Source of the DNA: Bacillota bacterium
GTDB lineage: Bacteria > Bacillota > Limnochordia > Darwinibacteriales > Darwinibacteriaceae
Assembly: GCA_012521335.1 (NCBI GenBank)
Contig: JAAYMM010000017.1
Coordinates: 1-60,862 of the forward strand
DNA length: 60,862 nucleotides
Direction: 5' to 3'
Made by a program: the position numbers and the translations under genes. Under the pieces are notes generated by a model. The model saw only the letters and a program-made list of their open reading frames with translations. It made no database searches and was not told the origin of the DNA. Below are positions 15,442 through 37,574 of the stretch, in pieces. Every line of letters begins with the position of its first letter. Position 1 is the first letter of the stretch.

Positions 15442-15479
15442 ATCCGGCCCTCCCAGTTCTTCAGCTTTCGAGAATACTA

Positions 15480-15488
15480 TGGTACAAT
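15480..15488 (+). promoter_or_regulatory. Extended -10 promoter candidate for the GH3 gene
   Basis: TG-G-TACAAT in the 86-bp divergent intergenic region. Confidence 0.45.
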
Positions 15489-15527
15489 TTAACAATAACC
15501 CATGTTCGGAAAGACGGTGATAACAAA

Positions 15528-17687
15528 ATGCTGTTCAAGCGCAGTGATCTGCCTTTAGAGGAACGCATCGCGGACCTAATTTCCCGCCTGACCCTGGAGG
15601 AAAAAGTGTCCCAGCTGGTTTATGATTCCGCTGCCATCCCCCGCCTGGGCATTCCCGAGTACAACTGGTGGAATGAGTGCCTGCACGGTGTGGCACGGGC
15701 CGGCACAGCCACCGTTTTCCCTCAAGCCATCGGTATGGCTGCCTCCTTCAATGCCCCGCTGCTGCACAAGGTGGCCCAAGTGATCGCCGCAGAAGCTAGG
15801 GCCAAGCATCACGAGGCCGCCCGCCGCGGGGATCGCGGCATCTATAAAGGCCTGACTTTTTGGACTCCCAACATCAACATCTTCCGCGATCCCCGCTGGG
15901 GCCGGGGCCAGGAAACGTACGGAGAAGACCCCTACCTCACCGCCACCCTGGGCATCGCCTTTGTGCGCGGCCTGCAGGGCGATCATCCAAGGTATTTGAA
16001 GGCAGCGGCCTGTGCCAAGCACTTCGCGGTGCACAGCGGCCCGGAGAGCCTCCGCCACAGCTTCGATGCCCGCTGCAGCCAGAAGGACCTCTATGAAACC
16101 TACCTGCCGGCGTTCCGCGCCCTGGTTACCGAAGCCCAGGTGGAAGCGGTGATGGGAGCTTACAACCGCACCAATGGCGAACCGTGCTGCGCCAGCCCAA
16201 CGCTGCTGCAGAAGATTCTCAGGGAGGACTGGTCGTTCCAGGGCCATGTGGTCTCCGACTGCGGAGCCATTTACGATCTCCACGCCCATCACCAAGTGAC
16301 AGACAGCCCTGAAGAATCTGCGGCCTCAGCCGTGAAACACGGCTGTGACCTCAACTGCGGGCGGGTGTACCCCGCCTTGGTAGAAGCTGTGGCCCAAGGG
16401 TTGATCTCTGAGGAGGAGATCGATCAGGCTCTGGCGCGCCTGCTGCGCACCAAGTTCAGATTAGGCCTGTTTGACCCAGAGGAAGAGGTACCCTACGCGC
16501 AGATCCCCTATGAAGTGGTGGCCTGCCCTGAACACCGCGCTCTCAGCAGGGAGATGGCTCGCCAGTCCATGGTTCTCCTGAAAAACGACAACAACCTGCT
16601 GCCCCTGGCCAAAGATCTGAACACGGTAGCCGTCATCGGCCCCAATGCCGATGCCCGTGGAATCCTCCTGGGCAACTACTACGGCACCTCCGCGCAGCTG
16701 GTTACGGCCTTAGAAGGCATCCGCCGCAAGTTAGAGCCCCATGCCAGAGTGCTCTATGCCCAGGGCTGCGATCTTTTCTCCACCAAACCCAGTTATTGGG
16801 GCAACAGCCCCAAGGCAGGATTTGCCGAAGCCCTGGCAGCAGCAGCCCGGGCCGATGCGGTGATCATGTGCCTGGGCATCTCACCTGAGCTGGAGGGAGA
16901 AGAAGGGGCGGCAGCCAACTCCGACGGCGGAGGGGACAGAACTTCTCTGGAGCTCCCGGGCATGCAGAACGAGCTGCTGAAAGAAGTGGCCGCCCTGGGC
17001 AAGCCACTGGTTCTGGTCCTCTTCAGCGGAAGCCCCCTCACCATCACTTGGGCTCAGGAGCATGTGCCCGCCATCATCCAAGCCTGGTATCCCGGGGAAG
17101 AAGGCGGGAATGCGCTGGCGGATCTCATCTTCGGCGACTACAACCCCGCAGGCCGCCTACCCGTCACCTTCGTTAAGTCGGTGGACCAGCTTCCTCCCTT
17201 CACAGACTACTCCATGGAGGGCCGAACTTACCGCTATCTCAAAGAGGAGCCCCTCTATCCCTTCGGCTACGGGCTGAGTTACACCACCTTCAGCTACAGC
17301 AGCCTCCAGGCCCCAGCTGAGCTGGCGGTCGGCCAGGAGCTTGTGGTGCAGGTAGAGGTGGAAAACACAGGTGCCCGGGCAGGCGATGAAGTGGTGCAGC
17401 TGTACATCAAACACCTGGACGCTGCCGTGCCCACTCCCCACTTCTCGCTGCAGGGCTTTGCCAGAATCCACCTGGAGCCGGGGGAAAGGCGCACTGTCAC
17501 CTTCCAGCTCACCCCCAGGCAGCTGGCGGTGTTCGCGGAAGACGGCCGCTGCCTGGTGGAACCTGGCTCTCTGCAGATCTTCGCGGGAGGCAGCCAGCCC
17601 GATGCCCGGAGTCAAGAGCTTACTGGGCAGAAACCCCTTTCTGCTCAAGTCAGGCTGATAGGAGAGGCTCTAGAACTCCCACGCTGA
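15528..17687 (+). CDS. GH3 beta-xylosidase-like glycoside hydrolase (cytoplasmic)
   Basis: [33 protein letters not shown], nucleophile in VVSDCGAI, FnIII-like C-terminus. Confidence 0.92.
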
Positions 17688-17693
17688 CATGGG

Positions 17694-18560
17694 CTACTCC
17701 CCGGCGATGCCGGATGTGCCCATGGTCTGGACAATCCTGGATTGGTTGATCACGAAGACCGTGATGGGCACGGTCATGAGCAGCACGGACACCGCGGCGG
17801 CGACCCCGGCGCGGCCGACGCCTCCGCCGATAATCTGCCCCAGCGCATAGGGCAAGGGCTTCAACTCTTCAGAGTAGATGAACAGCGCGCCTTGATCTCC
17901 CCAGAGCTGCTGAAAGTTTAGGATGATCAGGGTGAGCCAGGCGGGTTTCACGATGGGCATCACAATCTTCCAGTGGATGTACCATTCCGAAGCTCCATCA
18001 ATGCGCGCTGCTTCCAGCAGAGAATCATGCACCATATGGGTGATAAAATTGCGCATGAGGAACACTCCCAGGGTAGTCCCCCAAGCAGGGATAACCAAGG
18101 CCGCGTAGGTGTTGATCCAGCCTAGGTAGGAGATGATCAGATAGCGGGGGATGACCAGCACCGAGCCGGCAAACATGAGCGAGAACAGAATCAGGTTGTT
18201 GATCAGCTGCCTGCCCCTGAAGTCGTGTTTGGCGAGAGCATAGGCGCAGAGTGAACCCAGGATCACGTTGCCCGCGCTGCCCGCACCCACGATAAACAGG
18301 GAGTTAAACAGGTAGCGCGACACGGGAACCCAGGATTGCGCCATGAGCAGGAACAGATCGCTGAAGTTGCTCAGCGTAGGATGGCGCGGCAGGAACTGCG
18401 GCGGAAAGATGAACAGCTCGTTCAAGGGCTTAAATGCCTGGCAGATGGCATAGAACATGGGCAGCGCCATGTAAATGGCACCAAGGGCCAGCAGTGTTAA
18501 GATGGCCGCATCCCCTGCGGTGGAACGGGCTAGACGGCGGTTGCTGATTCGCAGACGCAT
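17694..18560 (-). CDS. Carbohydrate ABC permease (MalG-like)
   Basis: EAA motif LLEAARIDGAS, about 6 TM. Confidence 0.92.
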   Translation of the reverse strand: MRLRISNRRLARSTAGDAAILTLLALGAIYMALPMFYAICQAFKPLNELFIFPPQFLPRHPTLSNFSDLFLLMAQSWVPVSRYLFNSLFIVGAGSAGNVILGSLCAYALAKHDFRGRQLINNLILFSLMFAGSVLVIPRYLIISYLGWINTYAALVIPAWGTTLGVFLMRNFITHMVHDSLLEAARIDGASEWYIHWKIVMPIVKPAWLTLIILNFQQLWGDQGALFIYSEELKPLPYALGQIIGGGVGRAGVAAAVSVLLMTVPITVFVINQSRIVQTMGTSGIAGE

Positions 18561-18577
18561 TGCGTTTCCCTCCCCTG

Positions 18578-19468
18578 CTAAGCTATGCGGCGCAGAAGCC
18601 TCTGCACCAGGCGCTGCACCAACACCATGGTGATAAACAGGAGTACGGCCATGGCAGAGGCATAACCCATCTCATAGCGCACATAACCGTAATCGTTGAT
18701 GTGCTGCACGATAGTCCAAGTGGCCCAGTCCGTGGGGGCAGTGCCCGTGAGGGCCTGGATCTGGTCGGCAGCTGCGAAAGAGTTGGTAATACTGATAATG
18801 GCCCCGAACATCAAGTGGTGCTTCATCATGGGCAGGGTTATGTACCACAACTCCTGCCAGCGGTTGCGAATGCCGTCGATGGCTCCCGCTTCATAGTAGA
18901 TGGGGTCGATGCCCTGCAGGCCCGCGATAAAGGTTAAAAAGCTCACGCCCAGACTCATCCACAGGATCACCACGATCACAATGGGCATCATCCATCTAGG
19001 ATCGACGAGCCATTGGATGGGCTTGTCAATGATGCCCCAGTACAGCAGGATGCCGTTGATATACCCGTAGGCGTCGCCGCTGAACAGTACCGTCCAGATC
19101 ATGAAGGCATTGGCGGAAATGCTGGGCGCATAGAAGAGCAGCGTGAGTATGGCCCGAATCCTCGGTTTGAGCTCGTTGATCAGCCAGGCAAAGATGAAAC
19201 ACAGAGCATAGCTCAAGGGGCCCGTGATGGCTGCAAAGAGCAGGGTGTTCTTCACCGCGATGAGGAACACATCGTCTTCCAAGAACAGGGCCAGGTAGTT
19301 AGACCAACCCACCCAGCGGGGAGGCTCCACCATGTTGAAGTAGGTAAAGCTGAGCCCCATGGCAATAAGGATGGGCGCCAGCACGAAAACGGTGAACACC
19401 AGCAGGAACGGCGCCACAAACAGATATGAAACCCGCTTTTCCCTCAGTTCCAGCCAGAATGCCTTCAC
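18578..19468 (-). CDS. Carbohydrate ABC permease (MalF-like)
   Basis: YYEAGAIDGI motif; GTG 19468 overlaps the upstream TGA (GTGA). Confidence 0.92.
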   Translation of the reverse strand: MKAFWLELREKRVSYLFVAPFLLVFTVFVLAPILIAMGLSFTYFNMVEPPRWVGWSNYLALFLEDDVFLIAVKNTLLFAAITGPLSYALCFIFAWLINELKPRIRAILTLLFYAPSISANAFMIWTVLFSGDAYGYINGILLYWGIIDKPIQWLVDPRWMMPIVIVVILWMSLGVSFLTFIAGLQGIDPIYYEAGAIDGIRNRWQELWYITLPMMKHHLMFGAIISITNSFAAADQIQALTGTAPTDWATWTIVQHINDYGYVRYEMGYASAMAVLLFITMVLVQRLVQRLLRRIA

Positions 19469-22400
19469 GGCCCCTCTCCCCCTTCCACAAGCCCGTAACG
19501 CTCCAGGATGCCCCGATACTCTTCCCCCAGTTCCGGTGGATCCCAATCCAAGCGCCAGACATGGGTGTAGTGATCCCAAAACAGCTCCTTCCAGCGCTCA
19601 TCCAGCTCTTCCAGTTCAGTCTCGTAGCCAAACTCCGAGCGCTTACGGGCGATCTCTTTGTCGATCTCCCGGGCATAGTCCAGGACTGATTCCCGCACGG
19701 GAGCATTGTGCAGCACTACGGCCCTGAACAGCCAGTCAAACTGCCTGGTTACGTAGTACCCGCCCAGAACAGGCGGCACTCCTTCCACCCAATCCCACTG
19801 AGTGTTGAGCTGTTCCCGCTCCTCTACCCTCCAGGGCAGCTCCTGCATAGCCTCCACATTAGCTGTGGCATAACGGGCACTGGCGCCAATCAAGGCTTCC
19901 AGTTCCCGGCCGAAGCGGACCTGGGTCTCTTTGCTGGTCCACCACTTGAGGAACTCCCAAGCTTCCTGTTTGCGCTCGGATTTTTCCAAGATGATGGAAC
20001 CCGTTGTTCCGCTGGGCATGATCACCGCCCCCAGCTGATCGGTGCGGATCTGCAGGGCGTCCTGGGCCACGGGCACAGCCCGGTTAATGGTGCCATCAGG
20101 CTGCAGCGTCCCAGGGATGGGAGCCATACCCCACTGCCCCCTGAGTTCGGTGGCAAAAACCGAGAGGGTGTTGAACTCGGCGTAGTTGGCGATGGCCAGC
20201 GGCATCTCGCCCATGCGGAAACGGTTGATGAAGTTGTACTGCAGGGGCAGGCCCGATTGGGTAAAGAGATTGGTCATTTGGGCAAAAATGTCGATGGCGG
20301 CATGGGCTGTGAGGTTGGTTTGAATCACATCCTCTTTGTAGAGGCTGATCCCATTCTGGTACAGAAACTGCACAAAAGTGTACATACTTGGCCAGATGCC
20401 GAACTCCAGGTGATGATTCTGCAGCTCGGGCAGAATGCGCAGAACATCATCCCAGGTCTGGGGAATCTCCAGACCCAGTTCGTCAAGAATATCCTTGCGG
20501 TAGAACAGAATGGGGAAGCTCTGCACTTCCGGCAGGGCGAACACCTTGTCCCGGAAGCGGAACGCCAGCAGGGCCGATTTCTTAAAGCGTTGAGCCACTT
20601 CGGGGAAGTCGGGAAACTGGGTCAGATCAGCCACAGCGCCGCGGAAAGCCAGGTCCATATTGGCCGCCCCGATGGCCACATCAGGCTGGTTGCCGGCAAT
20701 GGTAGCCGGGACCAGCAGTTGATCCATATACGTAATCAGCTCCAGATCAACGTGGATGCCTGTCGCGGGCGTGAAGCTGTCCTCGATCATCTGCTTGAGG
20801 ATCTGGGCCTGGTCCCGGCCGAGCCCGATCCACACCTTAATCCGCTTGGCGGGTTCTGCGCTCGCCGCGTCCCCGCTGATATCATGGATGGTGGTGTAAT
20901 CGCGGACAAAGGAAGATAGAAAAGAGCGGACTTCGTGCACCACCACTTCCCAGAAGGTTGGTTGGGCCCTGGGCATCTCCTGCTCGGGAGAAGCCACCAC
21001 CAAAAAGTCGATCTGCAGGGGCTGGCGCCGGGAGGTCATGATCCAGGTGCCCAGCTGTCCGATGGCATCACGGTATTCCTGGAGCAGATTGGGGATGGCA
21101 TCAGGCTTCTCATACATGCGCTCCAGCATGCGGGCAAAGTCCAGCAGAGCCGCGGAGTGGCCCAGATGCTGAGTGATCCGCTGGACTTCCCCAGCTAGCA
21201 AACGCAGATCATCGGCCCCCGCCTTGATCCGCTCCAAGAGCTGCGGCACGCGCTGTTCCAGCTGGTAGCTGCGCATGGGGTCTGGTGTGGGCGAGGTGAT
21301 CATGATTATGCTGCGGTAGATACCGTTGAGCCCATAGAGCAGCTCTTCGGCAAACTCAATCAGGGGGCCCAGCTCACCCAGGACCGCTTCGAGGCGGATT
21401 TCGTGCCGCCCTTTGGTGAGGTAAAACAGGTAGGGCTCGCCCTGCTCCTCTTCTCCCAGCTGCTTCATCTCATAGCGCGAGGAAAAGCGGAAGGGGATCG
21501 CGGCCACCTCGGCAAAGGGCACTTCTCCATCGATAAGCAGCCTGCGGTGGCTCACATCACCCCTGTTGATGTTCTGCTTGGCCTTAATGGCGATCTTGTA
21601 GTAGCCGTCCTGGGGAATATCCACCTGCCAGGCGATCCAGTCGCCCACCTCCGTCCAGCGGTGGCCGCCTATGGAATTGAGCCTCGTTTCTGCGTGGTGA
21701 TAGGGCACTACGGTGGGATCTCCTGGATCGGCCACGGCAAACAAGGAGGGGCTGGAGCGGTAGCTGGACGCTTCCCCTTCGATCTGCAGGAAAATGCCCC
21801 GTACGTCCGCAGCCTCGGGCTGCTGAACCCGCACCTGGGCGTAGGGCTGAGGAACCGGCGCCTGACACAGCCGTAGGTGCCCAATAATCATGGGCTCCGC
21901 TCGGGAATGGAGGCGGATGGTGTTCCAACCCCGCTGGAAGTAAAAGAAGAAGGGATTCTGCTCATAGCCCTCGGCATCGCTGAGAAAAACCGTCTGCCAC
22001 ATGGGCTGTTCTACCTGGCGCGGCCGAATCTCATTGCCCGCGGCGTCAAAGCGGGAGGGGCCTGCATCGCCGAACACCCGCCGAAAAACTAGGTACTCCG
22101 CGCTGGCGAAGGGCAGCTGCCCGTTCACTTCTATGCTGCGTTCAATGGCCGTGCTGCGCCCGGGAGCGGGATAATAGCAGAGTTCAATATTGTACAACCC
22201 TGCTTCCTCCACCCAGACGTTCCATTCGATCATGCCCTGTTCATCGACCCAAACGGCCAGCCCGGGATAGCCCTCATACTGCGGCAGCACTTCCGTGCGG
22301 GCGGTGGCCCGGCGAAAGGAAACTGCCGAGATGGGCACGGCGTGTTCAGGGAAAACCGGCTCAGGGACAGCGGCCAGATACTCACGATAGGTGGGCGCTG

Positions 22401-22503
22401 TCTGGGCAGCTCTAGCTTGCTCCCCACAGCCTACCAGGGCAGCTAGGAACAGCAGGCCGCCGAGGATGAGAATGAACTCTGGTCGCAGGCGCCTGGCGAG
22501 CAT
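19465..22503 (-). CDS. Giant (1012 aa) extracellular solute-binding protein with N-terminal CBM-like beta-sandwich domains
   Basis: Lipobox-like LVGC; beta-rich repeats (WNVWVEEAGLYNIELCY, IAWQVDIPQDGYYKIAIK); C-terminal sugar SBP (WIGLGRDQAQIL, LFYRKDILDELG, AWEFLKWWTS). Confidence 0.85.
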   Translation of the reverse strand: MLARRLRPEFILILGGLLFLAALVGCGEQARAAQTAPTYREYLAAVPEPVFPEHAVPISAVSFRRATARTEVLPQYEGYPGLAVWVDEQGMIEWNVWVEEAGLYNIELCYYPAPGRSTAIERSIEVNGQLPFASAEYLVFRRVFGDAGPSRFDAAGNEIRPRQVEQPMWQTVFLSDAEGYEQNPFFFYFQRGWNTIRLHSRAEPMIIGHLRLCQAPVPQPYAQVRVQQPEAADVRGIFLQIEGEASSYRSSPSLFAVADPGDPTVVPYHHAETRLNSIGGHRWTEVGDWIAWQVDIPQDGYYKIAIKAKQNINRGDVSHRRLLIDGEVPFAEVAAIPFRFSSRYEMKQLGEEEQGEPYLFYLTKGRHEIRLEAVLGELGPLIEFAEELLYGLNGIYRSIIMITSPTPDPMRSYQLEQRVPQLLERIKAGADDLRLLAGEVQRITQHLGHSAALLDFARMLERMYEKPDAIPNLLQEYRDAIGQLGTWIMTSRRQPLQIDFLVVASPEQEMPRAQPTFWEVVVHEVRSFLSSFVRDYTTIHDISGDAASAEPAKRIKVWIGLGRDQAQILKQMIEDSFTPATGIHVDLELITYMDQLLVPATIAGNQPDVAIGAANMDLAFRGAVADLTQFPDFPEVAQRFKKSALLAFRFRDKVFALPEVQSFPILFYRKDILDELGLEIPQTWDDVLRILPELQNHHLEFGIWPSMYTFVQFLYQNGISLYKEDVIQTNLTAHAAIDIFAQMTNLFTQSGLPLQYNFINRFRMGEMPLAIANYAEFNTLSVFATELRGQWGMAPIPGTLQPDGTINRAVPVAQDALQIRTDQLGAVIMPSGTTGSIILEKSERKQEAWEFLKWWTSKETQVRFGRELEALIGASARYATANVEAMQELPWRVEEREQLNTQWDWVEGVPPVLGGYYVTRQFDWLFRAVVLHNAPVRESVLDYAREIDKEIARKRSEFGYETELEELDERWKELFWDHYTHVWRLDWDPPELGEEYRGILERYGLVEGGEGP

Positions 22504-22516
22504 GTTGCTTTCCCCC

Positions 22517-23644
22517 TTAGTCTTCCTGTGCAGTGCTGTACTGCCCTTGGTTCTCCTTCCAAGGTGTGGACGGATCCACTATGGCCCAGAAACTGGGCTT
22601 AGGATTGCCCTGCCGGTCAAAAAGCAGCGGATAATCAGGGCGGTTGGGGACCGGGAAGTGGTTCTTCCAGCTGTGGTTGTCCTTCACACCCCAGAAAGTC
22701 ACCCGTTCGATCACGTGAGAATAGTCCTTAAACAGCCTGAAGAGAGCGGCATAGCGGTTGGCCTGCTGCTCCTGCACAGCCTCTGGCAGACCGTTGGGAT
22801 AGCGGTTGCTGCGATCATTCCAAGTGTAGACGCTCACGTCCAGCTCGGTGATGTGCACCTTTACTCCCAGGGAGGAGTAAAGCTCAATGGCTTCACGGAT
22901 AGCCTCAATGCTGGGATGCTGGAGATCCCAGTGCCCCTGCATGCCGATGCCATCAACACGAATTCCCTTGTCCAAAAGCCCCTTGACCAAGGCGTAGATG
23001 GCATCCCGTTTGGGAGCGTCTGCAGCGTTATAATCGTTGTAATAGAGCTCCGCATCGGGATCCGCTTCCTGAGCAAACCGGAAGGCGTGTTCAATATAGT
23101 CATCGCCGATAATCCGCCGCCAGGGCGTATCCCGCAGCTCCCACTTCCCTGTGGCCGCATTGTATTCGATAGCCTCGTTAACCACATCCCAGCCCTTGAC
23201 CCTGCCTTTGAAGCGGCCCATTACGGTCTTGATGTGCTCCTCCATCCGGGCCAGCAGGGCCTCACGGCTCACTTCCCTGCCGTTCTCATCTTTGAACACC
23301 CAGTCTGGAGTCTGGTTGTGCCAGATCAGGGTATGCCCGATCACCTGCATGCCGTGTTCTTCAGCGTAGCGGATGAGGTTCTCGGCTTGGACAAAGCGGA
23401 ACTCGCCCGGCCTGGGCTGCAGCGCCTCCCACTTCATCATGTTCTCCGCTGTGACGGCATTGAAATGGTCCAGCAGCGGTTCGTCCAGCCAGTAGTCGGA
23501 CCGGGCCGCAAAACCGATCAGGAAATCATTGGCGTAAATCTCTTTCAGCATAGGTATCCCTCCAACTTCTGCCCTTGCCGGGCTGTAGAATGCACAAAGC
23601 ATCAGCAGCAGCAGCAAACTCCACACAGAAAACCTGGCCTTCAT
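22517..23644 (-). CDS. GH10 endo-1,4-beta-xylanase with Sec signal peptide
   Basis: TAENMMKW, GHTLIWH, acid/base WDVVNEA, nucleophile ITELDV, PLLFD. Confidence 0.96.
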   Translation of the reverse strand: MKARFSVWSLLLLLMLCAFYSPARAEVGGIPMLKEIYANDFLIGFAARSDYWLDEPLLDHFNAVTAENMMKWEALQPRPGEFRFVQAENLIRYAEEHGMQVIGHTLIWHNQTPDWVFKDENGREVSREALLARMEEHIKTVMGRFKGRVKGWDVVNEAIEYNAATGKWELRDTPWRRIIGDDYIEHAFRFAQEADPDAELYYNDYNAADAPKRDAIYALVKGLLDKGIRVDGIGMQGHWDLQHPSIEAIREAIELYSSLGVKVHITELDVSVYTWNDRSNRYPNGLPEAVQEQQANRYAALFRLFKDYSHVIERVTFWGVKDNHSWKNHFPVPNRPDYPLLFDRQGNPKPSFWAIVDPSTPWKENQGQYSTAQED

Positions 23645-23661
23645 CACACACCTCCCGTGTA

Positions 23662-24606
23662 TTACCCCACAATTCCCGTACGCTCCACGCTCTCCACGAA
23701 GTAGCGCTGCAGGAAGACGTAGAGGATCAAAAGGGGCAGGATCACCAAAAGCATTCCGGCATTGTTGATCAGAGAATAGAAGTGATCGTCGAGGAAACCG
23801 CTGGTTGACGCCAGCGCATCGGCCTCGTCGATGGCTTTGGCCACGCGCGAGGCCGCGCCTTCCAGGGCTTGGGGCAGGAAATTGCGCCCGGCCATAAAGG
23901 TGGTTACATACAGGTAGTCATTCCACTGCCAGACAAAGGAGAAGAGAAATGTGGTGATCAAGCCCGGGACAGCACCGGGAATCATCACCCTCCAAAAAGC
24001 GGCGAAGGGGCCCGCCCCATCGATGTAAGCCGCTTCTTCCAGCTCTTTGGGCATGCCACGGAAGAACTGGCGCATGATGAAGATGTACAAACCGCAGCGG
24101 AAACCCGTACCGGTTAAGCTCATGAGGATGAAAGGCCAGTAGGTGCCGATCAGGTTGAGCGAGCGGCCCTTGAGCAGACCCAAAAAGTCAAAGAAGCGGA
24201 AACTGAGATAGGTTGGGGTCATGATCAGCTGAGGCGGGATGATCAAGGTAAAGATGGCCAGGCCAAAGATGAGTTTGCTTCCGGGAAACCGAAAACGGGC
24301 CAGGCCGTAGCCCACCATGGAACAGGTAATCAGCTGCAGAGCGCTGGTTAAGGCCGTCAAAAACAGCGACCTCATGAAAGCACGGGGGTATTCCATATGC
24401 TCCCACACCAGCCTGAAGTTGCGCAGAGTTGGATTCCTGGGTATCCAGCGCACGGACTGATCATACAAGTCTTCGATGCTCATGAGCGCCGTGGACAGCC
24501 GATAGATCAGGGGCAGCAGGATCACGTAAGCGATGCCGATCAACAACACCGTGCGCAGCAGGGCCACCACGCGTTTTCTCCACTTTTCCTTGGCTGCTAG
24601 GCTCAT
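23662..24606 (-). CDS. Carbohydrate ABC permease (MalG-like)
   Basis: ELEEAAYIDGAG motif; ATG 24606 has the best SD spacing. Confidence 0.92.
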   Translation of the reverse strand: MSLAAKEKWRKRVVALLRTVLLIGIAYVILLPLIYRLSTALMSIEDLYDQSVRWIPRNPTLRNFRLVWEHMEYPRAFMRSLFLTALTSALQLITCSMVGYGLARFRFPGSKLIFGLAIFTLIIPPQLIMTPTYLSFRFFDFLGLLKGRSLNLIGTYWPFILMSLTGTGFRCGLYIFIMRQFFRGMPKELEEAAYIDGAGPFAAFWRVMIPGAVPGLITTFLFSFVWQWNDYLYVTTFMAGRNFLPQALEGAASRVAKAIDEADALASTSGFLDDHFYSLINNAGMLLVILPLLILYVFLQRYFVESVERTGIVG

Positions 24607-24621
24607 ACTCATACCTCCCTG

Positions 24622-25521
24622 CTAGACGTGATAAAACCCCCGGCGCGAGAGCAGGCCAAACACCGCGAGCAGCACCAGGCCGATGGCGGCAAAATAGATC
24701 ATGGCCATGGCCATGCTGACCCCGTAACCGGCACCGCGCAGCATGGTCTCCCGGATGAGATCCACCAACTTGTTGTTCATGGCTGTGAAAGAGTCGATGA
24801 TCGTGTAGATGATGTTCACTAGAATCAAGGGGCCCATCATGGGGAAGGTGATCAGCCAGAAACGCTCCCAGCCCGTGGCCCCCTCCACGCTGGCTGCTTC
24901 GTACACTTCCCTGGGGATGGACTGCAGCCCCGCGAGGAAGATCAAAATCTGCACGCCGGACGCCCGGATCACTGTGGGCAGGGCTTGGATGGCATCGGCG
25001 ACGTAATCCACCATGCCCGCGGGAAAGCGCGCCGCATCGAAAAAGCTCTGCACGGCAGCCCCGCCGAAAAAGGGAGCACTCTGCTGCAGATGGGTAACCA
25101 TGATCTGGGCGTAGTCTTTCATCTCCATCTTCAGCACCACACCGGCGCTGAGGATGACCGGCAGGAAAAACAGGGTCCTGACGAAAGTGCGCCCCCTAAA
25201 GTCGCTGTTGAGGATGGTAGCGGCAAAGAAGCTGAAACCGATGATCATGGGCAGCTCCGTTGCCAGTTTCACCAGCACTTCAGTGAACGTCTTGGAAAAC
25301 TCCGGATGCACCTGCAGGGCATAGCCATAATTTGCCCACCCTTTCCACTGGAGCTCAAAGGTTTCTGGTGTGAGCACTAGGTCGCTGAAGCTGATCACCA
25401 CTGCTTGATAGAAGGGGACGGCAAACAGGAAGATAAAGCCCACCAGGAAGGGGACGGTAAACAGAAACCCAACCAGCTTCTGCCGGTGCGCGAAGGCCAT
25501 GGGCCGTCTTTTCCTCTTCAT
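24622..25521 (-). CDS. Carbohydrate ABC permease (MalF-like)
   Basis: VYEAASVEGATGW motif. Confidence 0.92.
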   Translation of the reverse strand: MKRKRRPMAFAHRQKLVGFLFTVPFLVGFIFLFAVPFYQAVVISFSDLVLTPETFELQWKGWANYGYALQVHPEFSKTFTEVLVKLATELPMIIGFSFFAATILNSDFRGRTFVRTLFFLPVILSAGVVLKMEMKDYAQIMVTHLQQSAPFFGGAAVQSFFDAARFPAGMVDYVADAIQALPTVIRASGVQILIFLAGLQSIPREVYEAASVEGATGWERFWLITFPMMGPLILVNIIYTIIDSFTAMNNKLVDLIRETMLRGAGYGVSMAMAMIYFAAIGLVLLAVFGLLSRRGFYHV

Positions 25522-25522
25522 C

Positions 25523-28264
25523 TTACTTCCCCCCTTGCACAACCACGAAGCCCACTCCCGGAACCGCAACGTCCGCAGAGAGCTGATAGGGCTGCGCGGT
25601 GTAGTTCACCACTAGCTGAAGGCCGTTGTGGTAAGTCGTAGCACACACATTGGGGGCCAGCACCTGGTGATCGGTGATCACCAGGGGCCATTGGCTGCCC
25701 AAGACATCCCGCACCTGGTTGTAGACGGCGAGCAGTTCCCCCTTGATCTCCCGGAACTGCGTGGAGAGGAGGTAGTCGAAATCTGTGTTTTTGGTGGCAG
25801 ATGACGGTTCCCAGGAAAGGGCGAAATAAGGAATGGCTCCCGTCTCCAGCAGCTTGAGCAGGTAGAAAGCTCCCCTGTGGTCAGATAGGTTGAAAGGTTC
25901 TCCCGCATACTCCACCAACCCGCTCACCACGAGGGCATAGAACGGTACAGTCTGATGGAGAATGGCCTCGCCGCGGGCAAACAGGGGCGCTTCCACCAAC
26001 ACCTCGGCGTAGGGCAGCAGATAGGCGTTGCTGCCTGCGATCATGAGCCCTCTGTCCGCGGACAGCCTGCTCACTTCCTGAGCAATGATTTCTGCGGCCA
26101 TCACCCGGTCTACCAAGGTGGCGGGGTTAAGGCGGTAGTCGCCGTAGAGCAGCAGCCCCAAATCGCCCAGGGCCAGCCTGGAAAGGCCGTAGGAGTTGTA
26201 CTCCTTGAGGAACGCGTCGATCACCCCGGATAGCCGGGCCGGAGATAACAAGGGTATCTGCCGCTGGTCAATGGGCTGGTAGGTGGCAATGTGGAATGTG
26301 TTGAGCACAGCGGCACTGCGATCCAAGCCCCTGGGAGCATGGATAAATTGAACATAAAGGTCCAAAAGGTTGTTGCGGTGCACGCGCAGGAAGTCTACGC
26401 TGGGGTATAAGGCTACACCAAGCTCCTCCAGGGACCTGCTCAATTGCTGCCAGGTGCGCTGAGTGCCGGCGGCCTTCTCCAGAAGCGCTCCCCGGGGGTA
26501 AACATGGCGGATGCCGCCGCGCAGCCAACCCAGGTAGCGCACTTTGAGCTCGTCGACTCCCGCAGCCAGCAGATCATCCACGATCAGCCGCACCTGTTCG
26601 TGAGTGGTGAGCGGCTCCACCACGTTGGTGGGTATGCCCAATACGGGCTTGATCTGGTCAAACGATCCCAAAACATCCACCAGCAGAGGCAGCCCAGATC
26701 TGGATGGCAGCAGCGTTAAGCCGTGCTTCTCCATGAGATAATGCCGATAGGCTCTGGCCATGCCTGCATAACTGGTGTCTTCTTCTGGGAGGAACACGTA
26801 ACGCAGGACAATATCATTCTTGTTCAGACGGGCCTGGTACATCAGGATGGACAGCCGCCTCAGGTGGATGAGCTCACCCTCGGCCTCCATGTTCACCCGG
26901 GCTGAAGAACGGACCTCAAAGGATGCCCAGACTCTGTTGTAGGAATCGCGCATGCCGGGCAGCATGGCTTCAATCCGGGCCGAGGCATCACCCTCTTCAA
27001 TGATGGCCAGAAAGGCCTGTCCGTTGTTCACCATCCCGAAGACGGGAAGATAAATCTGCTCTTTGAGCATCGCGGAATATTCCCTCAGGGGCACAGCCGC
27101 GTAATCCTGACCGTACACCCTGCGGCTGTAAGGTTCCGCCAGCGGCGTGGGGCGGTTGAAGTAGATCAGTGCCCCCGAACCATCAGGGACAAACATGTAG
27201 CCTGCATCCTCTGCGCCGCCGGCGCCAAAATAGGGCAGCACACTGAGGGTGGTCAGGGGATAAGATACCTCCCGCTCATTCTTGGCATCCCACACCCGAT
27301 CAGGAAAAGTGATTTCCTCCGCAGGGATCCGCACAAGCAGGTCTCCTCCATCCAGGAGGTATTCCACCACAACTGTAAACTGGCGGAGATCGGGATAGGG
27401 CGGAGCGACATTGTAGTACTCATGATCGAAGGCCACGTCTTCCGGCGTGTAGCCAGCTGCCTTGACCAGTTGGATAGCATCCTCTATGTCCCACTGCATC
27501 ACATTCCATTTCAAAAGCAGGGTGGGAGTATTGCGCAGGGCCACGATCTCTTCCGGCTTTACATCCCCCAACGAAGCGTACTGCTTGTGATCCCTGATCA
27601 ACACCAGGTACTCTTGGAACAGACGCCTTTTGTCTGCGGTGCGGAACCGGGGCTCATCGACCTTGATGCCCCAACCGTCCAAAAGGCGGTCGAAGTCCAC
27701 GCCCATAATGCTCAAGTCTTCACCGCTGTCATAGCCCTCTTCTAAACTAAAGAGGCCGTACATGTCGCGCAGAAAGGCGCGATCCTTTTCCTTGGCGATG
27801 TTGGCCAGGATCAGCTCGTTGAACCGCTCTTCGGAAATGATGGTAGGCAGGTAATCCCGATCCTGCCAAGTCTTGCCGAACTTGTATTCTACCCGCAGCC
27901 CTTGCTCCAAGGGGATGATCGTGTACTGCCCGTGGGCCACGCTGTCGTTGAAGCTGTCCATCTGCTGCTGTTGGTTGGCCGCGTAGTAGGTAATCACCAG
28001 CTGCGAGCTCAACCGCGCCTTAGCGGCGCCCCTGGCCAGCGTCTCCTGCTGATCTCTCCCGGGAGGATTGGAGAACCAGAGCGCACCCGTCTCCTTGTGC
28101 AGCAGGGCGATCTCAGCGGTATCCGGCTTGAAGTACAGCTCCAGGAACTCGTTTTCTGCTCCCTTTTGGAAACCGGGAGGCAGATCGGCAGCGCCTGCTG
28201 TGGCTGTCCAGGCGGCCAGGGCCACCAGGAGCGCAGCCAACAGGACAAGCAGTCTCGCACGCAT
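25523..28264 (-). CDS. Large secreted uncharacterised protein, DUF5696-like (913 aa)
   Basis: Signal peptide; segments YMFVPDGSGALIYFN, VYGQD, LPVFG, RYLGWLRGG recalled as typical of proteins in this conserved ABC neighbourhood. Confidence 0.7.
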   Translation of the reverse strand: MRARLLVLLAALLVALAAWTATAGAADLPPGFQKGAENEFLELYFKPDTAEIALLHKETGALWFSNPPGRDQQETLARGAAKARLSSQLVITYYAANQQQQMDSFNDSVAHGQYTIIPLEQGLRVEYKFGKTWQDRDYLPTIISEERFNELILANIAKEKDRAFLRDMYGLFSLEEGYDSGEDLSIMGVDFDRLLDGWGIKVDEPRFRTADKRRLFQEYLVLIRDHKQYASLGDVKPEEIVALRNTPTLLLKWNVMQWDIEDAIQLVKAAGYTPEDVAFDHEYYNVAPPYPDLRQFTVVVEYLLDGGDLLVRIPAEEITFPDRVWDAKNEREVSYPLTTLSVLPYFGAGGAEDAGYMFVPDGSGALIYFNRPTPLAEPYSRRVYGQDYAAVPLREYSAMLKEQIYLPVFGMVNNGQAFLAIIEEGDASARIEAMLPGMRDSYNRVWASFEVRSSARVNMEAEGELIHLRRLSILMYQARLNKNDIVLRYVFLPEEDTSYAGMARAYRHYLMEKHGLTLLPSRSGLPLLVDVLGSFDQIKPVLGIPTNVVEPLTTHEQVRLIVDDLLAAGVDELKVRYLGWLRGGIRHVYPRGALLEKAAGTQRTWQQLSRSLEELGVALYPSVDFLRVHRNNLLDLYVQFIHAPRGLDRSAAVLNTFHIATYQPIDQRQIPLLSPARLSGVIDAFLKEYNSYGLSRLALGDLGLLLYGDYRLNPATLVDRVMAAEIIAQEVSRLSADRGLMIAGSNAYLLPYAEVLVEAPLFARGEAILHQTVPFYALVVSGLVEYAGEPFNLSDHRGAFYLLKLLETGAIPYFALSWEPSSATKNTDFDYLLSTQFREIKGELLAVYNQVRDVLGSQWPLVITDHQVLAPNVCATTYHNGLQLVVNYTAQPYQLSADVAVPGVGFVVVQGGK

Positions 28265-28295
28265 ATGCTTTCAGCCCCTCTCAGAACGCTTCCAG

Positions 28296-30455
28296 CTAAG
28301 TACGATGGATGGCCTCAGTGATCAACTGGCGGACGAACAGAACCACCTGTTCGGTCAGGGCGATAAACAACAACCCCAAAAAGAGGGCGAAGGCCATGCC
28401 CAACAGGGTAGAAATGCAGGTGAAGATGGTCTTGCTAAAGTCATACTCATGGGTGACCATGGTGGCGCCTACTACCAAAAGCACAACGGCCCAGCCCAAC
28501 CCCAAGGACATGAGCATGTAATAGAAAGCTCCTTCTTCGGCGATGAGGAAGTTGCTGATCATGGTCAAGGGCACAACGGTCAGGATGACAGGAATGAGGG
28601 CAAAGGCACTGGCGATGTAGACATCCCGCAGCGTTCCCTTGCCTTCCATCAAGGTGGTCAGAGCCCAGTTGACAAAGGTCCAGAGCAGGAAGGGCAGCAC
28701 AACACTGCCGATCTCCACCAAGAGATTGATCTTACTCAGATCTGCCCTGTTGAAGATGAAGCCCGTGTACTGGCGAGCAAAGACAAAGGTAAGCACAACC
28801 AGGGCTAAGATAATGGTGGCGGCCAAGGGTGTCCCCCTCTGTTCTTTCTTCAACCTTTCGAAACCGTCAAAGGGATGGAAGATGATGTATAACCCGAAGC
28901 GCAGGCTGTTTAGCGTCTTTCGGCCAAACCGGGCCCACTTCGCCTGGGCTGCGGCTGCCTCCTGCGCCGCGGGCAGGCTGGGCCTGCCAGGCCTGAACCT
29001 GCGGAAGAGGAAAAACGCGGCGAGCAAAACCGCGCCTGAGGCGAAGGCTTGGGGGAAGTGGGCATAGACCAGTTCTTTTCGATACAGCTCGAACGCCTCA
29101 GAATACTCAGCACGGTTGTTGCCCAGCCTGAAGTTTTCCATAGCCTGGGCGTATTCGCCCCTTCTAAGCAGCGCCCGGCCGATGCCAGTGTAGGCCACAT
29201 CGAAGTTGGAGTTGAGCACCAGAAGCTGGCCCCAGATTCTTTCAGCCAGGTGGTAGTCGCCCCGCTCGTAAGCATCCAGGGCAGCCCAGATGAGGAGCGC
29301 ATAGTCGGTGGGCTCGAAAACCACGATACCTCCACGCTGGGCATCCAGGACAAGCATCGTTTTGCCCAGATGGTCCAGGGCCACGGGACTGGCCACCTGG
29401 CCGTGCCCTGAACCCCAGTAGCCAAAATCGTAAAGAAGGTTGCCGTTGTTGTCGTAGGTGAATACCCGCCCCCGATTGCCGTCGAGCACGCTATACACTC
29501 CGTAGGGTTGTACCGTGATATCCACCAACATGGAGGATGTGCGCCGGGTGGCTGTGGACCAGCGGTCGGGGAACTCCACATCACCCATGGGATCGGCAAA
29601 GCCCAATCGCCTCAGCAAGTCTTGGCCCTTGGCGTTAATTTTACGGACCTTGATGGCGATTCCGCCTTGATCTTCTTCCTTATCCTCAGCATGGCTGGTG
29701 GCGTAGATGAAACCCTCCGAGTCCAAATCGAAGTTGGTATACTCTGTGGGCAGAAAAGCCCGGATCCTCTGGCGCTGTTCCTTGGTGGCGAAGCGGCTCC
29801 ACAGGTATTCGGCCAAACTGGGCGTAACGCGGGGCGCGCCCAAAAAGCCGCGAAACTGACCGTCGGCACTAAAGCTGATGAATCCTTCGTATAAGTCTTG
29901 GGCGATCACATAAATCCGGCCGTGCTGATCCACGCCCACCTTCAGGGGCCGGTAGTTGAAATTGGCGGGAAGGATCCCCTCAAACTGTGCCTGGGGAGCA
30001 GGCACGATCCGGTTGAGAGTCCCGTCTGGATTGAGGTGTACAATGCGGCCGTTGCCCGTATCGGCAACGTAAATGTGGCCCTCGGGAGTGACAAAAAGGC
30101 CCATGGGAGAGTTGAAGCTGTCGTCATCGCCAAAACTGGAGATCACGCGCACCAGCTGGAAACTGCCATCGGCCACAACCAGGCGGTTGTTGCCCGTATC
30201 GGCGATATAAATCTCGCCCTGCGCGCTGACAAACAGGTCATTCGGATTCTTCAGCGGCCCCACCTGCAGATCGTCCCCCAGGATGATCCGAGACGGGAGA
30301 TAGGCCTGGGGGCTGGGTACCGCCTTCTGCCAGAAATCATACAAATAGCTGGTGTATGGAACAGTGAAGTTGGTAATTGAGGTGCCTTGGGCGTAAGCAG
30401 AGCAGCAAGCCGCCAGCACGGCCACCAGCACTGCACACACCTTGCGCCACATCAT
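28296..30455 (-). CDS. NHL-repeat / TPR / Yip1-domain membrane protein (719 aa)
   Basis: Signal peptide, repeated YIADTGNNR / YVADTGNGR (NHL), TPR-like helix pair (AYTGIGRALLRRGEYAQAM), C-terminal multi-TM Yip1-like domain (HPFDGFERLK...). Confidence 0.8.
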   Translation of the reverse strand: MMWRKVCAVLVAVLAACCSAYAQGTSITNFTVPYTSYLYDFWQKAVPSPQAYLPSRIILGDDLQVGPLKNPNDLFVSAQGEIYIADTGNNRLVVADGSFQLVRVISSFGDDDSFNSPMGLFVTPEGHIYVADTGNGRIVHLNPDGTLNRIVPAPQAQFEGILPANFNYRPLKVGVDQHGRIYVIAQDLYEGFISFSADGQFRGFLGAPRVTPSLAEYLWSRFATKEQRQRIRAFLPTEYTNFDLDSEGFIYATSHAEDKEEDQGGIAIKVRKINAKGQDLLRRLGFADPMGDVEFPDRWSTATRRTSSMLVDITVQPYGVYSVLDGNRGRVFTYDNNGNLLYDFGYWGSGHGQVASPVALDHLGKTMLVLDAQRGGIVVFEPTDYALLIWAALDAYERGDYHLAERIWGQLLVLNSNFDVAYTGIGRALLRRGEYAQAMENFRLGNNRAEYSEAFELYRKELVYAHFPQAFASGAVLLAAFFLFRRFRPGRPSLPAAQEAAAAQAKWARFGRKTLNSLRFGLYIIFHPFDGFERLKKEQRGTPLAATIILALVVLTFVFARQYTGFIFNRADLSKINLLVEIGSVVLPFLLWTFVNWALTTLMEGKGTLRDVYIASAFALIPVILTVVPLTMISNFLIAEEGAFYYMLMSLGLGWAVVLLVVGATMVTHEYDFSKTIFTCISTLLGMAFALFLGLLFIALTEQVVLFVRQLITEAIHRT

Positions 30456-30477
30456 CGCCCACCTCCCTGCTGTGAGA

Positions 30478-30507
30478 AGGTCTGTGAGCCTTGAGGCTCA
30501 CAGACCT
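30478..30507. other. Intercistronic 13-bp hairpin without U-tract
   Basis: AGGTCTGTGAGCC-TTGA-GGCTCACAGACCT. Confidence 0.75.
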
Positions 30508-30523
30508 AAACCGCTTCCCTGCT

Positions 30524-31831
30524 TTACTGCTTGAGGTACTCGTCGATCATGGCCTGGCCTTGCGGCTTGAACTCGTTGACGATGGTGGAAGCCACTCCGC
30601 CGCCCTTGATACCCTCGATCACGCCGCCATAGGGCGTCTGATTCTCGTACCAGGCACCAAGGAAGTTGTGGTAGTAGGCGGCGTCGCCGTTCACCTCGGC
30701 AAAGGCCCTCTGGAATACTTGATACGAGGTGCGGTCATAGGCACGATCGCGGATCATATCTTCCATGGCCTCGTAGTAGTCCTCCAGCGGGAAGAGGAAG
30801 TTGTCCAGAGCGATCAGGCCCAGGGGATAGGCGGCATTTCTGGGTATGAAGATGGCATCGGCCACCCCAGGTGCGAAGACATAGTCATCGACATCATCGC
30901 CCATGGGCAGGGGCAGGATTCCGTGCCTGAATTCGTACTAGCTGGGGTTAATCTGCCAGAACGGCATGATGCCGATGGCTGTGCGGCCGGTGATGAACTC
31001 CCTCATCTGCCAGTCACCGTAGGAAATGCCCAGCACGTTTTCCCACTCAGCCAGTTTGCGCAGGGCGTTGATGGCCTGAGGCTCATCCAATGCATAATAG
31101 ACTCTGCCGTCATCGCCCAGCCTGGTGATGGCGCCTCCGTTGCTGAAGATCATGAACATGGGATCGATGAAAGCGAGCGCCCACTGGTCCACAACCCCAT
31201 CACCATCTGTATCACGGGTGACCTGGCGGCCGATCTCCTCCACGATCTTCCAGTTCCATTCATTGTTCTCATAGAGTTCGTAAGGATCCGGCAGGCCTTC
31301 CCGCTCGAACAGGTCGAGATTGACCACAGCAAAAGGCGCATGGCCGAAGTCGTCGGGAACACCTACGGAGAAGTGGAAGACATGCCCGTCATAGGACAGG
31401 CGCTCATTCTTCTCGCGCGTAATTGGTGAGAGCTGTTCAAAGTACTCGGGAGGCAGAATCTCGTCCACTGGGTAGAACGCGCCGCGGGTAGCCAGGGTGA
31501 AGAAATCCCTGTGGGGCAGGCGCCAGATGTCATACTGCGAGTCGCCCGACAGATAGCGGTTGAGAGCCAGTTGTCCGACTTCATCCCAACCTGCCGTGAT
31601 CAGCTGGATGTCACCGATATTGAACAGCTTCTTAGCCTCTTCCAGCCGTCCCGCGCGTGCTCCGCCTTCGTAGAAAGCGGATAAGTTGTCGAAGTGTGCT
31701 ACATAGGTTACTGTTGCGCCTTGGAAGTCAATGGGTCCGAAGTCCATGCGGTCAGATTCATAAGCCAATACGACGGGCGATATTGCCGCTGCTACGAGCA
31801 GCACAGCAGTAAGCAATCCAATCTTTCTCAT
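30524..31831 (-). pseudogene. Sugar ABC solute-binding protein interrupted by one in-frame TAG (30938-30940)
   Basis: ORFs 30938..31831 and 30524..30904 share a frame: ...FWQINPS*YEFRHGILPLPMGDD...; joined length 435 codons; Sec signal peptide. Confidence 0.8.
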
Positions 31832-33139: not shown

Positions 33140-33870
33140 AACGACCATCCTTTCGCTGTGCCGACGCGTGACGCTTGGACAAAATAGCCGGGATACTGGG
33201 CCAGCAGCTCATCCTCTTCCACCATGATCATGCGCAGGTGGTCGGTCATGATTTTTCTCGCCTCTTGGGCCTTTCCCTCTCTTAAGGCTTGGAAGACGGC
33301 TTGATGCTGCCTGAGAATCTGTTCCCAATTCGAGTCATGGGATAAACGGAGTACTCTCACTCGGTAAAAGTCTAGATTCAGCTGCTTAACCATGTCATAG
33401 GTCAGCTGCTTGCCGCAGGCGCGGAAAATAGCGGCGTGAAACTCGTCATCTAGGGCCAGCATGCGCAGGTAATCCTGGTTCTGGCAGCACTGCTCTTGCG
33501 CAGCCAGATTGTACTCCAGCTCCCGGATGTGATCGTCAGATAGACGCCCAGCCGCTTCCTCAACCACTGCCGTTTCCACAATCTCCCGTACCCAACGCCC
33601 TTCTTCCATCGACTCCAAGTTGATTAAAGACACATAGGTGCCGCGCTGAGGGTAGATCTCCACTAGACCATCTTGATGGAGGTGAACAAATACTTCGCGC
33701 ACGGGTGTGCGGCTCACTTTGAACTCCTCAGAAATCTCCTGCTCGGACATCTTCGTGCCCGGCTTCAAATGCAGATGAAGAATACTATGGCGCAGGGTGT
33801 TGTACACGAACTCCTTTGCCGACGCCCGCCTGCGCGGGGGGCGCCGCGCCGCAAATCTAGGTATGCTCAT
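33136..33870 (-). CDS. GntR-family regulator with FCD domain (RspR/YdfH-like)
   Basis: w[21 protein letters not shown]...YPQRGTYV; FCD motif DDEFH...H...H. Confidence 0.92.
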
Positions 33871-37408: not shown

Positions 37409-37424
37409 ACCCTGTTCTCCTCTC

Positions 37425-37553: not shown

Positions 37554-37574
37554 AAGAGGGGCGGAGGGCAAGAG

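Follow-up and report, generated by a model that had tools for sequence, protein, structure and literature searches.

A conserved module of two ABC permease pairs, an NHL-Yip1 protein and a DUF5696 protein in a presumed glucuronoxylan locus of a Bacillota bacterium

Contig JAAYMM010000017.1 (GenBank assembly GCA_012521335.1) of a Bacillota bacterium from the class Limnochordia was analysed over its whole length of 60,862 nucleotides, here called the window. Positions 17694-31831 of the window carry nine genes encoding two pairs of ATP-binding cassette (ABC) permeases, two solute-binding proteins (SBPs), one of them of giant size, a xylanase of glycoside hydrolase (GH) family 10, a protein that joins an NHL propeller to a Yip1 membrane domain (NHL-Yip1), and a DUF5696 protein (Table 1). 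With a probability of about 0.6, this region is a glucuronoxylan-specialised copy of a conserved chassis for glycan capture, processing and import that occurs in Bacillota and a few Spirochaetota. The gene content, the domain folds, the synteny, the paralogy of the module, its co-variation with carbohydrate-active enzymes (CAZymes), and a fusion of GH10 to the giant SBP were established directly from sequences and models.

The open reading frame (ORF) list and Pfam reproduced the nine minus-strand genes, with their coordinates and domains, of the first-pass annotation, which had been made from the sequence alone. Spacing between the genes of the module is -4 to 68 nt, and a GGAGG-type ribosome-binding site precedes every start. 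The same annotation described the cluster as lacking an ATPase; likewise, no ABC ATPase was found in the cluster on scanning the window proteins with Pfam and NCBIfam. The product of 635-1684 on the minus strand, the only ABC ATPase in the window, was considered as the missing MsmX and rejected as PotA-like (polyamine). Within 10 kb on either side of 80 related loci only three ABC ATPase-like ORFs are present, none of them MsmX-sized. The CUT1 sugar importers of Firmicutes share an MsmX-type ATPase (TC 3.A.1.1; MalEFG, AraNPQ), and its supply in trans is usual for them.

Table 1. Genes of the module, in order of transcription, followed by other features of the window. L082 is a sibling contig described in the text.
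Feature	Position	Strand	Basis and remarks
Small family-1 SBP, 435 codons, in-frame TAG at 30938-30940	30524..31831	-	Pfam SBP_bac_1, sequence read
NHL-Yip1 protein	28296..30455	-	Pfam NHL E=2e-13; Yip1 (PF04893) 50.9 bits, cut-off 28.6
DUF5696 protein, 913 aa	25523..28264	-	Pfam PF18952 E=2e-166
Permease A1 (MalF/UgpA-like), 292 aa	24622..25500	-	Pfam weak, E=1e-3; NCBIfam UgpA/MalF-like; EAA loop EAASVEGA
Permease B1 (MalG/UgpE-like)	23662..24612	-	BPD_transp_1 E=2e-14; EAA loop EEAAYIDGA
Single-domain GH10 endo-xylanase, Sec-type signal peptide	22517..23647	-	Pfam 348 bits, E=5e-104
Giant SBP, 1012 aa	19465..22503	-	Pfam SBP_bac_1 at residues 567-861 only
Permease A2	18578..19468	-	BPD_transp_1 E=2e-12; longest ORF to 19579, probable real start GTG at 19468
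Permease B2, last gene, convergent with GH3	17694..18560	-	BPD_transp_1 E=7e-13
GntR/FCD-family regulator	33136..33870	-	Pfam GntR E=1e-18, FCD E=3e-25
Acid-sugar dehydratase-like protein, enolase superfamily (MR_MLE)	31913..33148	-	Pfam MR_MLE_C E=5e-54
Perfect 13-bp hairpin, 4-nt loop, no U tract	30478..30507	-	Just after small-SBP stop codon, before NHL-Yip1
GH3 beta-xylosidase-like, no signal peptide	15432..17687	+	Pfam; NCBIfam Xyl3A-like; likely start 15528 (N-terminus, L082 gene table)
GH67 alpha-glucuronidase, no signal peptide	13408..15495	-	Pfam GH67 N, M, C domains; likely start 15441

Related loci were collected in two scans. A DUF5696-anchored scan with one genome per species gave at least 570 stretches with a relative, the best 80 of which were examined, and 59 loci were assessed in a reciprocal scan of metagenome contigs anchored on NHL-Yip1; the ORFs of each locus were searched with the proteins of the window to score the parts of the module. 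The 80 best loci belong to Paenibacillus, Cohnella, a Bacillus, Butyrivibrio and other Lachnospiraceae, Oscillospiraceae, Hungateiclostridiaceae, Mahella, Limnochordia, many metagenome-assembled genomes (MAGs) from digesters, and Treponema/Spirochaetaceae, and the relatives of DUF5696 come from rumen, human gut, termite gut, digester and soil. One DUF5696 homologue, P0109, on a 4.8-kb contig labelled 'MAG: archaeon', is probably a binning artefact.

The NHL/Yip1 gene or genes lie directly upstream of DUF5696 in all 72 loci with enough upstream DNA (72/72), and A1/B1 directly downstream of it in all those with enough flank (69/69). Of the 50 loci that extend at least 7.5 kb to either side, 41 contain the giant SBP together with A2/B2. 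In the reciprocal scan, DUF5696 directly follows NHL-Yip1 in 56/59 loci. Two of the exceptions are distant matches to NHL repeats alone, in unrelated NHL proteins. The third, L126 (9158-11087), has genes for GH26 and for a CIA30-like lipoprotein, similar to a carbohydrate-binding module (CBM), between Yip1 and DUF5696, and is the only break of this junction among the NHL-Yip1 family members sampled. DUF5696 without its partners was not found in any sampled locus. The parts are usually arranged as [small SBP]-giant SBP-A2-B2-NHL-Yip1-DUF5696-A1-B1-[small SBP]; the giant SBP-A2-B2 block is instead downstream in the window clade, L008 and L081. This mutual adjacency argues that the module is a conserved unit and not a chance neighbourhood. 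The first-pass annotation had set in advance a lack of conservation of the extra genes next to the permeases as the outcome that would speak against its proposal, and the opposite was observed.

Two kinds of gene fusion were found within the module. NHL and Yip1 are encoded by one fused gene in 34 loci and by two adjacent genes in 38, and this alternation indicates that the two work together. In three homologues of the giant SBP (P0134, P0136 and P0138; ~1524 aa, 62-64% identical) a GH10 and an F5/8-type-C domain are fused to the N-terminus. The fusion gene at L081 10001-14575 belongs to a locus with the gene order of the window. The locus of P0134, whose fused GH10 is 61% identical to the separate GH10 of the window, comprises GH3, GH10 (no signal peptide), SBP, NHL-Yip1, DUF5696, A1, B1, GH10-giant SBP, A2, B2, LacI and GntR. 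Such a fusion in a locus of the same order ties the xylanase to the module, and, by the Rosetta-stone argument, the surface xylanase would work on or at the giant SBP.

The module exists in several paralogous copies per genome; the MAGs JAAYAB01 and DUVS01 each account for at least four of the loci retrieved. Two modules stand in tandem in L039, the second ~8 kb downstream of the first (20919-22592), and two (L009 and L046) are ~38 kb apart on contig DUVS01000045.1; thus, paralogous modules cluster in the genome. The 130 genes adjacent to and co-directional with the modules include GH26 (12 genes), GH43 (7), GH53 (3) and beta-helix proteins (4), as well as GH38, GH95, GH35, GH42, GH4, GH31, GH106, a GH2 mannosidase, CBM35 and CBM6, and the regulators among them are of the LacI and AraC types. 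GH26 comes right after B1 in Paenibacillus amylolyticus, P. lautus and P. xanthanilyticus, and the adjacent CAZyme is GH95 in Bacillus sp. FJAT-26390, GH38 in P. azoreducens and GH106 in Anaerotaenia torta; GH10 is adjacent in few loci only (L014, L017, L077, L081 and the window). The neighbourhood check proposed in the first-pass annotation, whether the module co-varies with different CAZymes, thus gave a positive answer for GH26, GH43, GH53, GH10, GH95, GH38 and beta-helix proteins. Endo-glycanase genes are also found at different junctions: in the window, GH10 follows B1 and precedes the giant SBP, and in L126 GH26 separates Yip1 from DUF5696.

It could be argued that the region is a plain juxtaposition, in which two ordinary CUT1 importers of a Gram-positive polysaccharide utilisation locus (gpPUL) stand next to an independent surface glycosidase related to family GH129 and an unrelated membrane protein, and no complex is formed. 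Each part has an ordinary reading alone (SBP, permeases, GH-like fold), and a mixture of transporters, GHs and hypothetical genes is routine in gpPULs (PMC5320581). Nevertheless, this explanation is unlikely, as the order is invariant and the adjacency mutual (72/72, 69/69, 56/59) across distant taxa and across paralogues with reshuffled neighbours, NHL and Yip1 are either fused or split, GH10 can be fused to the giant SBP, and DUF5696 always has its partners in the sampled loci.

The mean pairwise identity over 38 full modules is highest for A2 (0.63) and B2 (0.62), followed by A1 and B1 (0.49 each), giant SBP (0.47), NHL-Yip1 (0.44), DUF5696 (0.37) and small SBP (0.30). As judged by these values, the small SBP and, in part, DUF5696 vary by locus, and the giant SBP, A2/B2 and NHL-Yip1 make up the constant core.

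The first-pass annotation called the 913-aa protein "DUF5696-like" and counted it among the extra proteins of unknown function that would form a xylan-binding complex. The domain was named correctly and is in fact a true DUF5696, PF18952 scoring 555 bits against a gathering threshold of 25.6 and being covered from model position 2 to 609 of 612; no other Pfam family matched the protein at E<=5. Rather than being an anonymous binding protein, it has a GH129-like glycosidase fold. In the AlphaFold2 (AF2) model (pLDDT 90.5, pTM 0.87), an N-terminal helix (signal or anchor) is followed by a beta-sandwich with a helical insert, a (beta/alpha)8 barrel and a C-terminal beta-sandwich. The best Foldseek match in the PDB was DagB (5opq, also 8rzk; E=3e-27, TM 0.69 on target), an alpha-1,3-(3,6-anhydro)-D-galactosidase (PMC5698469). 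It was followed by NagBb (5wzn; E=9e-23, TM 0.73 on target), an alpha-N-acetylgalactosaminidase of GH129, and then by GH101, GH36 and GH31. In a search of PDB sequences with the DUF5696 family profile, only these two GH129-type proteins, DagB and NagBb, were matched (E=1e-7 and 3e-4). The matches to GH129 by profile and fold are of partial coverage and 10-13% identity; a sub-profile of the barrel region found no GH129 protein in the PDB, and a 135-aa DagB fragment used as query for GH129 sequences gave no matches.

DUF5696 has in common with NagBb and DagB the three-domain architecture (beta-sandwich, (beta/alpha)8 barrel, C-terminal beta-sandwich) and the motif R-Y-x-F-L...D-Y-x-G-M-A-x-x-Y. 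It differs by an extra helical insert of ~150 aa, a length greater by 250-300 aa and the low identity, and also by being always encoded between NHL-Yip1 and ABC permeases. The model thus confidently predicts a GH129-like glycosidase fold, and the sequence comparisons indicate that DUF5696 is a remote homologue of GH129, that is, a related but separate family and not a member. The near-invariant acidic residues among 197 sequences are D361, D387, E423, D709 and E807. D709, which is Asp in 188 of the 197, falls, when placed by HMMER-anchor offsets only, in the interval for the nucleophile (DagB Asp486, NagBb Asp435). The N-termini of DUF5696 proteins across taxa resemble signal anchors or signal peptides, most of them having no lipobox, and the protein is predicted to be surface-exposed, either N-terminally anchored or secreted. 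The family is large, with 6596 clusters at 50% identity having E<=1e-3, and 3937 having E<=1e-30.

The NHL-Yip1 protein begins with a signal peptide with the lipobox-like sequence LAAC. An NHL beta-propeller at residues ~30-390 (PDB matches to 6-bladed NHL propellers with E down to 4e-31) is followed by a short helical TPR-like stretch, a transmembrane (TM) helix at ~468-487, the sequence RRFRPGRP, a linker, and the Yip1 domain with 5 TM helices at residues 523-698, five hydrophobic segments being present between 542 and 698 in the hydropathy profile. The TPR label of the first-pass annotation was not retained, the only matches being to consensus-TPR entries of the PDB at E ~0.1, which is not significant. 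The TM helix and linker are the only poorly conserved part (0.19 identity). From this topology, the propeller is predicted to face outward and the linker to be cytoplasmic, and the protein is a candidate membrane scaffold. Cooperation of a bacterial Yip1-domain protein with an ABC transporter has a precedent in YknWXYZ of Bacillus, in which the Yip1-family YknW is a fourth component (PMC4887032). However, YknYZ is an exporter of the MacB type and has a membrane-fusion protein, and YknW has no NHL propeller and no glycan link. An exact copy of the NHL-Yip1 sequence of the window was not found on record; a sibling contig was found via the giant SBP.

The giant SBP has a signal peptide with the lipobox LVGC. 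Its AF2 model (pLDDT 82, pTM 0.77) shows two beta-sandwiches at ~55-215 and 238-375, a helical bundle at 378-492 and a family-1 SBP fold at 496-960. The C-terminal part superposes on oligosaccharide SBPs with TM 0.65-0.78 on target; the Foldseek search with the whole model was dominated by this domain and is uninformative on the beta-sandwiches, for which only weak sequence matches to CBM35 and Golvesin_C were obtained. Conservation is even over all domains, 116 positions being >=95% conserved over 50 modules.

The best NCBIfam matches of the four permeases are UgpA, UgpE, MalF and MalG, and EAA loops (EAA-x3-G) are readable in all four translations. The longest ORF of A1 extends to 25569, and the start giving 292 aa was adopted from the gene call of L082; the GTG start of A2 overlaps the stop codon of the giant SBP by 4 nt. 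Two MalF/MalG-type subunits with EAA loops together with a family-1 SBP characterise a CUT1 importer, and these components are present.

That the giant SBP and A2/B2 are far more conserved than the small SBP, regardless of substrate, would also suit a sensing or signalling device, in which the giant SBP, A2/B2 and NHL-Yip1 detect a surface polymer and gate or regulate the true importer, composed of the small SBP and A1/B1. NHL propellers are known as extracellular sensor domains, and PknD is among the PDB matches. Such a device is, however, improbable to a high degree: the module has no kinase, helix-turn-helix or other output domain, the regulators nearby are of ordinary LacI, AraC and GntR types, A2/B2 retain the EAA loops for coupling to an ATPase, and in 9 of the 50 loci whose two flanks each reach >=7.5 kb, the giant SBP and the second permease pair are missing from these flanks. 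The least credible explanation, and a very doubtful one, is that the chassis remodels or recycles the envelope or exopolysaccharide of the cell itself, the link to plant-glycan CAZymes being secondary. The conserved DUF5696 chemistry and giant SBP do suggest an invariant ligand, and most giant SBPs and DUF5696 proteins across taxa have no lipobox and would need another route of surface retention. However, hydrolases of plant polysaccharides and sugar regulators make up the overwhelming majority of the neighbours, the top families of the 130 adjacent co-directional genes include none for envelope synthesis, and type I BPD_transp_1 permeases are importers.

The specialisation of the chassis for glucuronoxylan in the window was predicted from the enzymes encoded at the locus. 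The translation of the GH10 gene contains the catalytic motifs WDVVNE (acid/base Glu) and ITELD (nucleophile Glu), and its product is predicted to be secreted from the N-terminus read by eye. The GH67 and GH3 genes reported in the first-pass annotation as flanking the module were confirmed by Pfam, and their products are presumed to be cytoplasmic partners of the module. GH10 is the only CAZyme of the locus with a signal peptide, GH67, GH3 and GH2 having none, and this pattern fits extracellular cleavage, then import and cytoplasmic debranching. The dehydratase was matched best in NCBIfam by glucarate and galactonate dehydratases, all under their cut-offs, and its gene and that for the GntR/FCD regulator fit uronate/aldonate catabolism. 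Xylan/glucuronoxylan as the substrate, as originally suggested, is consistent with this set of a secreted xylanase, two presumed cytoplasmic enzymes (GH67 and GH3) and a dehydratase for acid sugars accompanied by a GntR regulator. The same enzyme logic of extracellular GH10, import, and intracellular GH67 and xylosidase is found in the aldouronate/xylan clusters of Paenibacillus and Geobacillus, which contain GH10, GH67, a xylosidase and an ABC importer. To our knowledge, those clusters include a single SBP and two permeases, and no NHL-Yip1, DUF5696 or giant SBP.

The small SBP of the first-pass annotation corresponds to an ORF of 297 aa (30938-31831). Pfam confirmed it as a family-1 SBP, but the ORF is only the front part of a gene of 435 codons that an in-frame TAG interrupts. 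At the position of the stop, Glu or Asp is found in homologues, and conservation goes on past it. The sibling contig L082, 99.83% identical over 15.5 kb, has GAG (Glu) at this site and an intact 435-aa gene; hence the TAG is a strain-level single-nucleotide polymorphism or an error. If it is real, the strain would be without the specificity SBP of transporter 1. Being the least conserved component across the modules (0.28-0.30 mean identity), the small SBP is presumably the variable, specificity-giving SBP of this transporter.

The chassis proposed for the window would thus include two transporters, the first composed of the variable small SBP and A1/B1, and the second of the giant SBP, with its two CBM-like beta-sandwiches and helical stalk, and A2/B2. 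Obligate accessories would be the surface NHL propeller tied to the 5-TM Yip1 domain and the GH129-like DUF5696 protein, and the ATPase would be supplied in trans from a gene elsewhere in the genome. We infer a physical complex, an activity of DUF5696, the ligands and the order of events, as follows. NHL-Yip1 would be the membrane scaffold that retains both DUF5696 and the giant SBP next to the two pairs of permeases. The secreted GH10, which is fused to the giant SBP in relatives, would cut xylan at the cell surface, the giant SBP serving as a surface platform able to carry endo-glycanases. DUF5696 would trim or debranch the fragments, or at least hold them, and the small SBP would pick locus-specific oligosaccharides for import. 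In the cytoplasm, GH67, GH3 and the acid-sugar dehydratase would complete the breakdown under GntR control.

A more far-reaching form of this proposal is that the chassis is one supramolecular surface machine, in which NHL-Yip1 bridges the two type-I importers and docks the GH129-like enzyme, the giant SBP and A2/B2 act as a generic polymer-handling unit, and the small SBP and A1/B1 import the locus-specific products. The giant SBP and A2/B2 would then hold the polysaccharide chain and the attached endo-glycanases, and possibly use ATP turnover to feed the chain. This form is put forward tentatively, as something that may be so but probably is not; if true, Gram-positive bacteria would have a machine that corresponds in function to SusCDEFG but consists of unrelated components.

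Several observations weigh against the proposed glucuronoxylan-specialised chassis. Two of them concern the catalytic role of DUF5696. Residue-level alignment of the GH129 catalytic residues onto DUF5696 failed, and in the interval for the GH129 acid/base (NagBb E478; DagB E517/E531), placed by offset, DUF5696 has no conserved Glu. The best candidate for its second carboxylate is column 770 (window 25955-25957), which is Asp in 169 of 197 sequences and Asn in 13, yet His in the window and in the five sequences closest to it. The His may reflect a changed catalytic chemistry or a lost activity in the xylan clade, and, given both observations, DUF5696 may be non-catalytic or use a different chemistry. 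A surface endo-enzyme is not constant in the modules either, as the GH26 proteins encoded after B1 in Paenibacillus (L071 14328-15317, L076 14386-15501, L052 14360-15391) have no signal peptide, which points to import of rather long manno-oligosaccharides that are then cut inside the cell.

Furthermore, the conservation of the giant SBP and A2/B2 is high whatever the neighbouring CAZymes, which is hard to square with binding of a locus-specific glycan. As the most conserved components of modules that differ in their CAZymes, the giant SBP and A2/B2 are unlikely to serve in recognising xylan, and the xylan specificity that the first-pass annotation extended to the conserved parts has to be given up. 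The small SBP, to which specificity is assigned here, carries the stop codon in the window itself. Finally, the 80+80 loci are the best-scoring ones, with 27-66% identity to the query, and distant members of the 6596 clusters lie outside this sample.

The transcription unit probably starts farther upstream than the module, with the GntR/FCD regulator gene as the first gene, since the regulator and dehydratase genes lie on the same strand with gaps of -13 nt (an overlap of the regulator with the dehydratase gene) and 81 nt (between the dehydratase and small-SBP genes). A promoter-like sequence, TTGACT-17-TAATAT, at 33938-33910 is weak, as the scan yielded no more sites than shuffled sequence; the promoter and terminator scan being no richer than that, the limits of the operon rest on spacing only. 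The hairpin after the small-SBP gene (centroid -25.1 kcal/mol, z=-2.4 for the 81-nt spacer) is possibly an mRNA stabiliser or a partial attenuator and may set the expression ratio of the SBP to the membrane components. Long plus-strand ORFs (312-437 aa) at 19708-20919, 22391-23704 and 30491-31429 are antisense to the well-supported giant SBP, GH10 and SBP genes; they were taken as non-coding, being most likely artefacts of the GC content of 57-60%.

A second carbohydrate locus at 33956-43036 adjoins the module. It encodes a GH2 (1150 aa) without a signal peptide; a divergent CUT1 system on the plus strand, composed of two permeases and an SBP of 535 aa; and a carbohydrate esterase of the SASA type that also has a GH2_N-like domain. 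Genes for a patatin-like phospholipase (43579-45234), an MMPL/RND-like membrane protein (48141-50426) and a dCache-HAMP chemoreceptor (52963-54876) are seemingly unrelated to the module.

Comparison with known systems places the transporters themselves among the CUT1 importers, with which the module shares family-1 SBPs, MalF/MalG-type pairs with EAA loops and the lack of an operon ATPase. It differs in having two permease pairs in one fixed unit, an SBP of ~1000 aa with CBM-like and helical domains, and two obligate extra genes. The definition of Sheridan et al. [quoted passage not shown] Several substrate-specific copies per genome are a further feature in common; however, the gpPUL definition is loose and operational with no fixed core, whereas the module has a fixed core of 5-8 genes in invariant order. 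Like the Sus systems of Bacteroidota, the module is a conserved transport core occurring in many paralogues beside different CAZymes, with surface binding or enzyme parts and a surface endo-glycanase. The likeness is functional only, as no TonB-dependent transporter (SusC) or SusD fold is present in the window module and flank proteins, ABC ATPases provide the energy, and the components of the two systems are not related.

The first-pass annotation considered the system undescribed, and nothing relevant was found in the literature. The literature searched yielded no papers mentioning DUF5696 or PF18952 and nothing relevant on Yip1 or NHL with an ABC transporter, a PUL or an SBP, and the terms Yip1, DUF and accessory protein are absent from a 2026 review of bacterial glycoside transporters (PMC13543919). 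The transporters are of the ordinary CUT1 type, and the new part is apparently a fixed, undescribed accessory core in an ABC-importer gpPUL.

The coupling of surface depolymerisation to uptake is far less understood in Gram-positive bacteria than in the Sus paradigm of Bacteroidota. The module, a very widespread gene core of Gram-positive bacteria that degrade plant fibre, provides a genomic marker for substrate-specific loci in Bacillota, DUF5696 is a probable new glycosidase family related to GH129, and NHL-Yip1 proteins would acquire their first bacterial role in nutrient uptake. The module also offers a testable way into the question of capture-coupled ('selfish') import of glycans in Gram-positives.

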